Of a DNA stretch of 24,000 nucleotides, positions 18,001-21,000 are shown one piece after another (within the stretch, counting starts at the first letter, position 1; each line of letters starts with the position of its first letter). The position numbers are program-made. This DNA is from Pseudomonas soli. Lineage in GTDB: Bacteria > Pseudomonadota > Gammaproteobacteria > Pseudomonadales > Pseudomonadaceae. The stretch covers positions 520,648-544,647 of the forward strand of contig NZ_FOEQ01000002.1 of assembly GCF_900110655.1 (NCBI RefSeq). The letters run 5' to 3'.

Positions 18001-21000
18001 GTAGAACAGGCCACAGGCCAGGTCGATGGTCTCGAACGTGAACTTATTGATGTCTTCGGCAATGCGCTGATCGGGATTGTCAACCTGCCGCTCGATCTGA
18101 TCGGGACGATTCGATTCGACGACCCAGGCAGACAAGTAGTGATTGGTCAGCCAGCGACGCCATCTCAGCGCGAAGACGTCGACCCAATAGGTAATCAGCA
18201 CCGAACGAAACACCGAGAACAGCACAATGGCAATGAACACCAGCACCAGTCGATAGAAGGAGTAGGCATCGAGTTCTTGAATGGCATTATAGAAGTGCTT
18301 GTACCATTCATTGATCGCCAGTGCGGTGGCCACCGCCAGAAGGGACAGCACCCCCAATGCCAGCAGTGAGCACCAGGCGAAAAGCTTTTCTTCACTCTTC
18401 CAGTACAACGACACCAAACAAAAAGTTTTACGAAAAAATGACGACTTTTCGGAGGCGCCATTACCCCCACTGGAAAATTTCGAGTTCATTGACATCACGG
18501 AATATAAATTAATTATTAGCGGAGCCTGTATTGCCCCCAATAAAAACTCTGAACGGACTGTCTGACCGTCGCGCACAGGGTCATCACACTAAAAGTACAT
18601 CTAACAAAATCCACCACGCTTTGCGATCACACCGATGACACCGGCAACCGCCAACTTCCCCTTGACGACGTATTCCACGATACACCACAACCCTCAGGCG
18701 CGTTTAACTTTACCCTTTTCCCCGGCCAACACACGAAGCGTCAGCGTTATCGCCAATGCCATCAACGTGTACTTCATGTAAATATTAATCATCCAATAGT
18801 CGGCCGCTGTCCCCACCGCTATTCCGATCGATATCGTCACGACCATGACGACGAGAGAGTTCATGGGCACATTCCAGATCACCTATTTCTGATGCCACGT
18901 ATTTACGTCGGCAGAATGGCTTAAAGCCACTACTGATGCTAAGTCTATCGCCAGCGTACCGCTCCCGACACCCTACAGGTGTAGGGATGGCGCGGGGCCG
19001 TTTGCCGCCCCAAATCGAAAGGAAGCTCAAACACCCAGCATTTCGCAGCTATTTCAGTCTCTCCCGACCCTGCGGGCGGGCAACCGTTCAAGATTGACCG
19101 GACTGCCTGCACTGATGGTGGGCCATTGAAAGCATTTCGCAGTCACCCTGTTTTTGCACACCTGCAAGGCACTTTAGCCTTACAGGTGAGCCGCATCACC
19201 CTCTAAAAAAATTTAGACAATGACGGGTGAACAAAATAATAAATCAACAGGTAGATTACCGGCACTGATATCAGCCCCAGCACGCCCTCAGTATTCCAGC
19301 CAAGCTTGATTTTCAGGAGACCGGCCATTTTTTTGAAAAGCACCGCCAACAGCAAGGCCAACACCAAGTCCAAAACATATATCACCCTTACCTCCGATCT
19401 GCGGGTATTGATTTAACTTGTCATCATGAAGAAAGAGGCGACCTCATTTCGAGGCCACCTCTGTCACAACAAACGCTTAAGCGCCAGTCGACGCGCTACC
19501 CCAAAGTCTTGACCCATTACCCGCAATCACTCCGCCACCAAAGCCCAGTGCCGTCCCCGTGGCAATACCGCCAATACCTACAGGTCCGGTGGCAGCTCCC
19601 ACCAGCGCGCCAACCCCTGCCGCTATCGCCAGGTCAGCTGCATTGATACTTCCACCACCGGTTTGGTTACCCAGATAGGTAGCAACTCCAGCCACTGCCC
19701 CGCCTACAGCCCCAACCGGACCAAAAGCGCCAGCCACCATCTCGAGCTCTTCTGCTGTGATATCTCGCATTGTTACAACTCCCTATGATTTCATGGAAAA
19801 ACGTTTGGCATTTACCCTTTGGTACACGCGCGAATCCACTTGTCGTACAGCAGCGATCAAAGCGCCCAGAACCCCAAGCGCCCCAAGCTCGCCGCCAGAC
19901 GCAATCGCGCACGGTGCCAACCATTCAATGCAGCAATATGCTCCTGCTCCGCCATTGCATAGGCGGAAGAAGCATTGAGCAGCTCGATCATGCTGCCCAC
20001 TCCAGAGCGATAACGGCCCTGGACCACGCTCAGGGCGAGCATTGCCTGCTCGACCCACTCGGCGGTTCTGTCCAGCGCCTGGGTCTCGATACCCAGGGCC
20101 TGGTAACTGGCCCACAGCTCCAGCGCCACTCGCTGCCGTGCATCGGCCAGTTCTGCTTCCTGGGCCTGCACCCTGGCCCGGGCACCCCGAACCTGATAGG
20201 TGCGCCCGAACCCTTCGAACAGCGGGATGCTGACCTGAAGACCAACGCTGTTGTCACGGATATGACTATCGCCGTTGTAATCCATGGCTTGATGGGTCTT
20301 CACATCCGACAGCGAGGCAATCAACGACAGCGATGGGCGGCCGGCAGCCTCGCGTTCGGCAACGGCTGCCTTTGCCGCCTCCAGTTTCGCCTTGGCGGCG
20401 ATCAACGCAGGGTGGTCGTTGCCCGCCTGCTCGAGCAGTGCATCCAGGCCTTTGACGAAAGCGGTATCCGGCCGCCGTGTCAGCGTTTGCGCCAGCATCA
20501 GCCGCGCCTGCGGAGCCAGCCCCATGCGCAAGGCGATCTGGCCTTTGGCATCGCGCACCGCCCCCTGGCCGCGGACCAGATTCAGGCTGGCCTGCGAGTA
20601 AGCGGTCTGCGCCTGGAGGCGGTCGCTCAGCGCGGCGGCGCCGGCGTCGAACTTGGCGCTGGCATCCTTGAGGTTTTCCGCGGCCAGCGCAGCAACCTGC
20701 TCGGCGGCCCGCTGCCTGTCCTGAGCGGCCAAGGTGTCGTAGTACAGGCTGGCTGCCTGCACAAAAGCCTCCTGCAAACGCTCATCCTGATTGGCATTGG
20801 CCGCCACCAGCAACTGCCGCGCATTGCGCAGGTCGGCTTCACGCCGGCCGGAATCGAACAGCACCCAGCTCAGGCCCAGACGATGGTCGAGCCGACGTTG
20901 GCGCCCCTGAACCGAGGCGTCCACCGCTTCATAATGGCTGTCGTTGCGCCCACGGCTGTAGGTGGCTGTGGCATCCAGCCTGGGCAGGTACGCCGCCTGC

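Follow-up and report, generated by a model that had tools for sequence, protein, structure and literature searches.

Does a short glycine-rich open reading frame (ORF) in a Pseudomonas soli genome encode a microcin, and if so, of what kind? The question is raised by a stretch of 24,000 nucleotides (contig NZ_FOEQ01000002.1, positions 520648-544647; hereafter the window), in which an initial annotation had proposed a double-glycine precursor peptide at positions 19477-19770 beside a C39-type exporter. Our analysis suggests, with a probability of about 0.7, that this ORF encodes a genuine microcin-type toxin precursor that would be exported and processed by the adjoining peptidase-containing ATP-binding cassette (ABC) transporter (PCAT) system and paired with a 60-amino-acid immunity protein. 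The most interesting point of the locus lies outside the coordinates of the initial annotation and is its island context, which is mchCDEF-like and located in Pseudomonas. The features that bear on the precursor, its export and its immunity partner are as follows.

19477-19770, minus strand: microcin-type precursor gene, 97 codons plus stop (ORF and translation)
19726-19770, minus strand: leader, codons 1-15 (translation of the precursor gene)
19480-19725, minus strand: predicted core of 82 amino acids (translation of the precursor gene)
19779-19783, minus strand: Shine-Dalgarno sequence GGGAG, 8 nucleotides before the precursor ATG (read from the sequence)
19203-19385, minus strand: candidate immunity protein, 60 amino acids, two transmembrane segments, GTG start, co-conserved with the precursor gene
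19391-19395, minus strand: Shine-Dalgarno sequence GGAGG of the 60-amino-acid gene, conserved in homologous loci
19857-21269, minus strand: TolC-family outer-membrane channel (OEP) of a type I secretion system (PF02321, E=3.6e-48)
21266-23419, minus strand: PCAT, MchF/CvaB-like, 717 amino acids (Peptidase_C39, ABC_membrane and ABC_tran)
23430-24000, minus strand: HlyD-family membrane-fusion protein, C-terminal part, gene cut by the window end (Pfam, NCBIfam)

The precursor gene and its peptide family

Translation of the minus strand at 19477-19770 returned exactly the peptide quoted in the initial annotation. Eight close homologues were found in Pseudomonas putida and P. hunanensis, with identities of 73-100% and lengths of 97-100 amino acids in every case. 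When the DNA was compared with three homologous genes, the ratio of non-synonymous to synonymous substitution rates (dN/dS) was 0.13-0.19 at a dS of 0.67-0.82, with no indels. Because of these ratios and the Shine-Dalgarno site, the ORF is judged to be a real and conserved protein-coding gene. The identical peptide is present on 22 contigs, and the gene in the window differs at 0 of 294 nucleotides from its copy at 8091-8384 of a second locus (L001). The flanking HlyD, PCAT, OEP and immunity proteins of the two loci diverge by 2-5%.

All-against-all HMMER comparison and profile searches recovered a further 26-37 distant relatives of 85-120 amino acids. These share with the window peptide a common leader and the core pattern G-P-x-G-A, G54xxxG58xxxG62-P63, G80xxxG84. 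Residues M1, G14, G24, Y32 and G58 are invariant in the family, and P63, G80 and G84 are nearly so. No Pfam domain was detected in any of 35 family members and the score against TIGR03949 lies under its cut-off; the precursor is therefore assigned, on present profiles, to an unclassified family of double-glycine peptides without a Pfam or NCBIfam model. Scans of the precursor and the 60-amino-acid ORF against Pfam, NCBIfam and PHROGs assigned no family to either, and a tblastn search of plasmids with the precursor peptide found nothing. A peptide-pattern scan of a genome collection matched 428 stretches, none of which was upheld by tblastn.

Some family members occur in unexpected settings. 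A 100% identical copy, together with the same island, lies on an 11.7-kb contig of the Diploscapter pachys assembly (L003; GCA_002287525.1, LIAE01010084.1), where the annotation treats it as a hypothetical protein of the nematode; the assembly is almost certainly contaminated with Pseudomonas DNA. Other members are orphans inserted amid core genes (L098 10001-10291, L095 10001-10312), and no exporter gene lies within 10 kb of them; one is flanked by cbtB and cobW in Pseudomonas sp. ABY48. The orphans of L098 and L095 imply export by a PCAT encoded elsewhere.

The leader, MRDITAEELEMVAGA, is 15 amino acids long and carries M(-15), I(-12), E(-8), L(-7), V(-4), G(-2) and A(-1). This bears out the earlier description of a double-glycine leader with hydrophobic residues at -15, -12, -7 and -4, glutamate at -8 and Gly-Ala at -2/-1. 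The leader also matches M...Rx[IL]x9G[GAS], the published class II microcin signal pattern (PMC12219008), and it is more than a chance feature, the precursor being the sole credible ORF with a double-glycine leader in the whole 24 kb. The make-up previously given for the core was recounted and holds: its 82 residues include 25 glycines (30.5%), one aspartate, one arginine and no cysteine; there are also 17 alanines. Its predicted mass is 7111.8 Da, hence under 10 kDa. The precursor ends in ...RLWGSASTGA, with alanine as the final residue; among the homologues, only P0005 ends in serine (...STGS). AlphaFold2, run on the family alignment, produced a model of moderate confidence (predicted local distance difference test 71.8, predicted template modelling score 0.58) with core helices at 18-36, 44-61 and 66-94. 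Foldseek returned no significant PDB match to this model; SlyB ranked first (E=3.6).

Particular weight had been placed on a glycine zipper in the core. The GxxxG chains described at core positions 39-43-47 and 53-57-61-65-69 are present, the latter at DNA 19519-19569 as reported, and a further chain at 5-9-13 had been overlooked. Shuffling the core 100,000 times gave a chain of at least five glycines at i/i+4 spacing with P=0.096, and the nine GxxxG pairs observed compare with 7.0 expected (P=0.22). Across 35 family sequences, glycine is conserved at core positions 2, 5, 9, 13, 19, 25, 39, 43, 47, 65 and 69, and occurs at positions 53, 57 and 61 in just 17-43%. Two of the five glycines in the long run are thus conserved in the family, which retains three short motifs at 5-9-13, 39-43-47 and 65-69. 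The glycine zipper is thus supported in part: the motif is present and the short elements are conserved, and the uninterrupted five-glycine run is no more than composition would yield. The long zipper is probably a by-product of composition and had been over-read.

Export machinery and the candidate immunity gene

The precursor gene lies 86 bp downstream of a same-strand operon of hlyD, C39-ABC and tolC-like genes; the complete hlyD gene is visible in L001 at 3130-4431. The PCAT retains the catalytic motifs of its C39 domain (Cys in ECGLACLAM, His in NHFVVL, Asp in HDP) and is 43% identical to an MchF-type transporter across 691 amino acids. The channel protein matches TIGR01844 with E=6.8e-49, yet under the curated cut-off (167 vs 225 bits). 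The Pfam and NCBIfam calls and the catalytic motifs support the earlier proposal that the precursor is the natural substrate of the adjoining C39 ABC exporter.

On the basis of these features, a sequence of events can be proposed. The leader would be recognised and the C39 domain would cleave after Gly14-Ala15 during export through a three-part type I secretion system. The released product would be a near-neutral, hydrophobic, Gly/Ala-rich peptide of 82 amino acids and 7.1 kDa with three predicted helices. It would act on related pseudomonads, at their cell envelope or inner membrane, and the producer would be protected by the 60-amino-acid membrane protein. Less certain is a modification at the conserved small-residue C-terminus (W-G-S-x-S-T-G-A/S), or by hydroxylation, which would make the product class IIb-like.

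The 60-amino-acid ORF begins 91 bp downstream of the precursor and encodes a protein with two hydrophobic peaks and a pI of 9.5. It follows the precursor gene in every close-subfamily locus found, including an orphan cassette in P. putida; the copy in L090 is not a called gene and was recognised from its translation alone. A Shine-Dalgarno sequence and a GTG or TTG start are conserved, and dN/dS is 0.18-0.48. The P. putida cassette, consisting of the precursor and immunity genes, is flanked by queC and a cation-efflux gene, and no exporter is encoded within 10 kb of it; in P. hunanensis the two genes are inverted and found on the opposite side of the SbmA-like gene. Such two-gene mobility would be typical of a bacteriocin-immunity module, and the two-transmembrane protein is accordingly described here as the candidate cognate immunity protein.

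Public annotations of the immunity gene differ from this assignment in length. The calls at L087 10313-10570 and L089 10324-10566 (80-85 amino acids) are N-terminal over-extensions of a conserved protein of 60 amino acids. The longer frame is shut in the window by a TAA at 19413-19415, and the true start is the GTG or TTG a few nucleotides past the conserved GGAGG. Two further features lie in the intergenic regions on either side of this gene.

18694-18864, minus strand: hydrophobic ORF of 56 amino acids, probable second-cassette remnant, with homologues in L090 (62%) and L008 (43%)
19434-19462, minus strand: terminator-like hairpin just 3' of the precursor stop, 13-bp stem followed by TTCTTC (consensus scan; weak evidence)

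The homologues of the 56-amino-acid ORF in L090 and L008 lie directly upstream of a different double-glycine peptide (MRDLTEKEVLMVSGAGG...), the gene for which is absent from the window. The ORF probably represents what remains of a second microcin cassette, namely its orphaned immunity gene, and the gap between the OEP and SbmA-like genes appears to be a hotspot for microcin and immunity cassettes. The hairpin is confined to the lineage of the window and L001; the consensus fold of the homologous intergenic regions of L087, L089 and L090 differs.

The surrounding island and the question of modification

Beyond the precursor, its exporter and its immunity gene, the island contains further genes, some of which could act on the peptide.

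386-2573 of L001, minus strand: MchC/MchD homologues, just past the window end; also at L089 1357-3544 and from L090 12693 onward
17377-18489, minus strand: SbmA/BacA-like membrane protein, transmembrane domain only (PF05992/PF06472, NCBIfam)
16204-17349, minus strand: SCP2 plus Cupin_8 (JmjC-type) Fe(II)/2-oxoglutarate oxygenase, candidate peptide hydroxylase (Pfam)

Longer contigs with the identical peptide (L001-L006) carry two further genes past the right end of the window, divergent from hlyD. Beyond window position 24000, these encode a 573-amino-acid protein without a Pfam domain and a 153-amino-acid HlyC-family acyltransferase. A gene for a 67-amino-acid LuxR/GerE-type regulator lies between them and hlyD. 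In a tblastn search of plasmids, the 573-amino-acid protein matched an 'MchC protein' of Salmonella. One matched plasmid contains a genuine mchC-(mchD)-mchE-mchF cluster, with a transporter annotated as 97% identical to MchF and with adjoining microcin M-like and N-like genes. The 573-amino-acid protein is 38% identical to the MchC of this cluster over 360 amino acids (E=1e-62), and the HlyC-family protein is 41% identical over 118 amino acids to the ORF in the mchD position (E=3e-31). MchC belongs among the distant SelO/kinase-like proteins and MchD among the HlyC-type acyltransferases; the corresponding enzyme pair MceIJ reportedly requires ATP, according to work by Nolan and colleagues in 2007. 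In class IIb microcins, MchC and MchD (equivalent to MceJ and MceI) join glycosylated enterobactin to the Gly/Ser-rich C-terminus (PMC3281104, PMC7472721).

This type of island recurs in the genus. Eighty loci were gathered through PCAT homology, and L089 and L090 through homologues of the peptide. The set of mchC, mchD, luxR-type, hlyD, PCAT, OEP and SbmA-like genes was found in Pseudomonas sp. NPDC090233 (L007), P. rossensis (L008), Pseudomonas sp. nanlin1 (L010), P. bharatica (L055), L089 and L090; the luxR-type regulator was undetected in the L008 island. Every such island carries different Gly/Ala-rich double-glycine peptides. In L007 and L055, a Gly-rich double-glycine peptide and a transmembrane ORF are encoded directly 3' of mchC-mchD on the same strand. 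The L007 peptide ends in ...SGSSGS, a class IIb-like tail, and the L055 peptide is a member of the window peptide's family (E=5e-27). This arrangement links mchCD to such cargo, without proving the window peptide a substrate. The SbmA/BacA-like gene is present in 7/7 related Pseudomonas islands examined, mostly adjoining the OEP gene. BacA-type importers protect rhizobia from membrane-active peptides, and by analogy a role of the SbmA/BacA-like protein in self-protection is conceivable. The whole block is compositionally foreign: GC content at third codon positions is 0.90-0.95 in host genes, 0.84 in the PCAT gene, 0.76 in OEP, 0.70 in the SbmA-like gene, 0.68 in the cupin gene, 0.61 in the immunity gene and 0.46 in the precursor gene. 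The island can be described provisionally as an mchCDEF-like type in Pseudomonas that has the C-terminus-modifying pair and lacks the enterobactin-tailoring enzymes. Our literature searches found no paper on Pseudomonas mchCD microcins.

The oxygenase consists of an N-terminal SCP2 domain followed by a Cupin_8/JmjC domain. Its closest relatives in the PDB are protein hydroxylases: JMJD5 (E=1e-19), then FIH, JMJD7 and JMJD6. The HxD...H iron triad is intact and aligns with that of JMJD5, as do an asparagine and a lysine that we take to be equivalent to the 2-oxoglutarate-binding pair of JMJD5. The window lineage, L089, L055 and L010 have kept the gene, which is degraded in L090 and missing from L007. 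Oxygenases of other kinds accompany more distant family members: the gene for a different, ROXA/NO66-like JmjC protein of 385 amino acids sits within the transporter operon of L091 and of L093 and close by in L094 and L096, and an AspH-type hydroxylase gene adjoins the family peptide in L092. The ROXA-like enzymes go together with a G-x-N-Y / NYCGxxY tail module at the peptide C-terminus, a module that is found on unrelated cores. The recurrence of oxygenases in the family had been considered as convergent evidence for hydroxylation; it was downgraded, as the ROXA-like cupins follow a tail that the window peptide does not have. The sole basis on which the window peptide may be linked to a hydroxylase is co-conservation within the island.

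These tail modules merit mention in their own right. ROXA/NO66-like JmjC proteins of about 385 amino acids are encoded in or beside PCAT operons that have double-glycine peptides with G-[TSAL]-N-Y / NYCGxxY tails, whatever the core. Examples are L053 5656-5856 and 6279-7427, L093 6833-7162, L094 5074-5460 and 10001-10315, and L096 10001-10327 and 12055-12315. A minimal ORF in L053 consists of a leader plus SKAGANYCGEYY and nothing else. These loci look like an undescribed system of ribosomally synthesised, modified peptides, with the tail as enzyme substrate. No paper that treats JmjC or cupin enzymes together with double-glycine peptides was found in the literature.

Comparison with described microcins and rival explanations

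The features of the locus agree with those of class II microcins in general: a predicted mature peptide under 10 kDa, a signal of the GG/GA/GS kind within the usual 15-19 amino acids, a nearby PCAT with membrane-fusion protein and channel, and an adjacent small membrane protein with a putative immunity role. With MccH47, MccM, MccI47 and MccE492, the peptide shares a double-glycine leader of 15 amino acids and a cysteine-free core of under 10 kDa rich in Gly, Ala and Ser. As in the class IIb mchCDEF and mceIJ-GH clusters, there is an adjoining small transmembrane candidate immunity gene, a PCAT with membrane-fusion protein (43% to MchF) and homologues of MchC and MchD (38% and 41%) in identical gene order, and the peptide has a small-residue tail (GSASTGA here) and belongs to a horizontally acquired islet. 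The published class IIb criterion is a Ser/Gly-rich C-terminus with a final serine (PMC11634061). Set against this class, the locus has the MchC/MceJ and MchD/MceI homologues and fewer than two cysteines (zero), and lacks the final serine and a glycosyltransferase and esterase in the cluster. It also differs from the Enterobacteriaceae class IIb systems in its Pseudomonas host, in a tail that is not Ser-rich and ends in alanine (serine in one homologue), in the absence of MchA/MceC/IroB and MchS1/MceD, in that no Fur box was detected and in a core whose homology cannot be demonstrated. The Pseudomonas island, by contrast, brings a TolC-like gene of its own and, as further conserved genes, those for a JmjC-type hydroxylase, an SbmA/BacA-like protein and a LuxR-type regulator; the hydroxylase and the SbmA-like gene were not reported in the Enterobacteriaceae microcin clusters compared.

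Likeness to class IIa (MccV/ColV, MccL, MccN, MccPDI, MccS) extends to the leader, PCAT-dependent export, the pairing with an immunity protein and a Gly-rich N-terminal region. Unlike class IIa members, the window peptide has no cysteine, hence no disulfide, and its island carries homologues of modification enzymes. The initial annotation had also seen a resemblance to MccH47 and ColV. The shared Gly/Ala-rich, cysteine-free character was confirmed; homology of the cores was not, as a core-only hidden Markov model reached at most 11 bits against verified microcin cores, with heavy compositional bias, and hhalign alignments to MccV and MccM were confined to the leader. The precursor had no Pfam match, the MccV model PF17508 included. 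An hhalign probability of 94.6% over the leader plus GAL.G..GP.G was obtained against a presumed MccH47 sequence, and is a lead only, since an exact look-up of that sequence failed; the sequences used for MccV, MccE492, MccM and MccI47 were confirmed. A tblastn search of plasmids with the same unconfirmed MccH47 sequence found nothing. A weak match to the leader and first GxxxG-rich segment was seen in the Gram-positive lactobin A / cerein 7B family (TIGR03949), whose 21.5-bit cut-off is barely reached by two distant relatives, P0012 and P0031. In contrast to that family, the window peptide is about twice as long and is found in a Gram-negative type I secretion context. Membership in any described microcin family is thus not shown, and the functional class of class II microcin is supported on all features accessible in silico.

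Several results weigh against this reading, some of them against a modified product in particular. The core has no demonstrable homology to any verified microcin, the score against TIGR03949, the nearest NCBIfam model, is 13.3 bits, and the C-terminal residue is alanine in contrast to the serine of all class IIb microcins described. In the window lineage, L089 and L090, mchCD is more than 4 kb from the precursor and on the other strand, and an insertion sequence (IS) element fills the slot after mchD (in L089, standing for the window lineage). Intact orphan pairs of peptide and immunity genes persist without mchCD or cupin (L087/L088), and an intact pair is found in the L090 island, where the cupin has been lost and the peptide kept. 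Other branches of the family pair with a different, ROXA-like JmjC protein that tracks a G-x-N-Y tail missing in the window peptide. No glycosyltransferase or esterase Pfam families were detected among the island genes of the window, L001, L089 and L090; the glycosyltransferase (MchA/MceC/IroB) or esterase (MchS1/MceD/IroD) could be encoded elsewhere in the genome. Other class IIb hallmarks are a siderophore bound covalently at the C-terminus, entry through catecholate receptors and control by iron and Fur; on the last of these, the best sites in a Fur-box scan matched at 12-14 of 19, no better than noise.

Post-translational modification is nevertheless to be considered, because the island includes MchC and MchD homologues together with genes for a JmjC-type hydroxylase and an SbmA/BacA-like protein. 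As the enterobactin glycosyltransferase and esterase are absent from the island, the chemistry would differ from that of known siderophore microcins. In its fullest form, which we rate as less likely than not, the locus would encode a Pseudomonas equivalent of the siderophore microcins: MchC and MchD would activate ...STGA and transfer it to an acceptor other than enterobactin, the JmjC protein might hydroxylate the peptide, and the SbmA/BacA-like protein might serve in self-protection or product handling. Given the MchC/MchD homologues and the intact JmjC hydroxylase, an unmodified peptide can no longer be taken as the default. The earlier remark that features of a C-terminal uptake domain are not evident is qualified by the MchC/MchD pair that the island still carries.

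The closest rival is an unmodified class IIa-type microcin, a bare Gly-rich peptide that would form pores in the inner membrane of the target, with mchCD, the cupin and the SbmA-like gene serving other cargo or functions. This is consistent with the self-contained, movable two-gene cassette that occurs without mchCD or cupin (L087/L088) or with a degraded cupin (L090), with the tail that does not end in serine and the lack of a glycosyltransferase and esterase in the island, and with the hydrophobic core, its three predicted helices and its conserved GxxxG motifs. It is nonetheless rather unlikely, as mchCD is conserved in this island type, sister islands place it in an operon with Gly-rich double-glycine peptides, one of them of this family, and the long zipper is statistically insignificant and mostly unconserved. 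A second rival is a secreted double-glycine peptide without bactericidal function that would simply use an exporter of the microcin type. It might be a signal, a peptide of autolysis or a component of biofilms that self-assembles or forms amyloid, in line with the tendency of Gly/Ala-rich sequences to aggregate. Precedents include the Neisseria Nap peptides, which have no antibacterial activity (PMC11798529), and Acinetobacter microcins, which are reported to promote biofilm (PMC13188072). The tight pairing with a small two-transmembrane gene, which extends to the orphan cassettes, is a toxin-immunity signature, and the way in which peptide and immunity modules replace one another like cassettes in the gap from OEP to the SbmA-like gene fits antagonistic diversification; such a role is accordingly quite improbable. 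Signs of decay are seen in some related islands, namely a frameshifted PCAT and mchD with IS elements in L055, an IS element beside mchD in L089 and the degraded cupin in L090. A relic or non-expressed cargo gene of a decaying island is even so very hard to credit here, where the island genes inside the window are all intact, purifying selection on the peptide and immunity genes is strong and the identical peptide is found on 22 contigs.

Assignment as the precursor of a class II microcin-type bacteriocin from a strain of the Pseudomonas putida group thus remains our preferred reading, and its implications depend on the state of the product. To our knowledge, the characterised class II microcins, and all characterised members of class IIb, come from Enterobacteriaceae. 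Class II microcins as such are by now recognised as widespread (PMC12219008). The locus offers a testable Pseudomonas system that comprises a new peptide family, a complete dedicated exporter and a movable toxin-immunity cassette. It further includes MchC/MchD homologues without enterobactin-tailoring enzymes, and a JmjC hydroxylase with an SbmA-like gene. If the peptide is modified, it would reveal the action of MchCD-type enzymes outside enterobactin chemistry, and the locus could yield narrow-spectrum agents against Pseudomonas; should the siderophore-microcin-like reading hold, it would be the first class IIb-like 'Trojan horse' microcin outside Enterobacteriaceae and would bear a new appended moiety. 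If unmodified, it would simply be another predicted microcin.

The remainder of the window contains a second group of genes. A run on the plus strand at 6312-12531 encodes an HMG-CoA-synthase-like protein, an enoyl-CoA hydratase, an asparagine-synthase-like amidotransferase, an FAD monooxygenase and an acyl-CoA dehydrogenase, and has host composition. It is preceded by a LysR regulator and a resistance-nodulation-division (RND) pump plus OEP (175-4725). This run looks like a small secondary-metabolite or beta-branching cassette, unrelated to the precursor.

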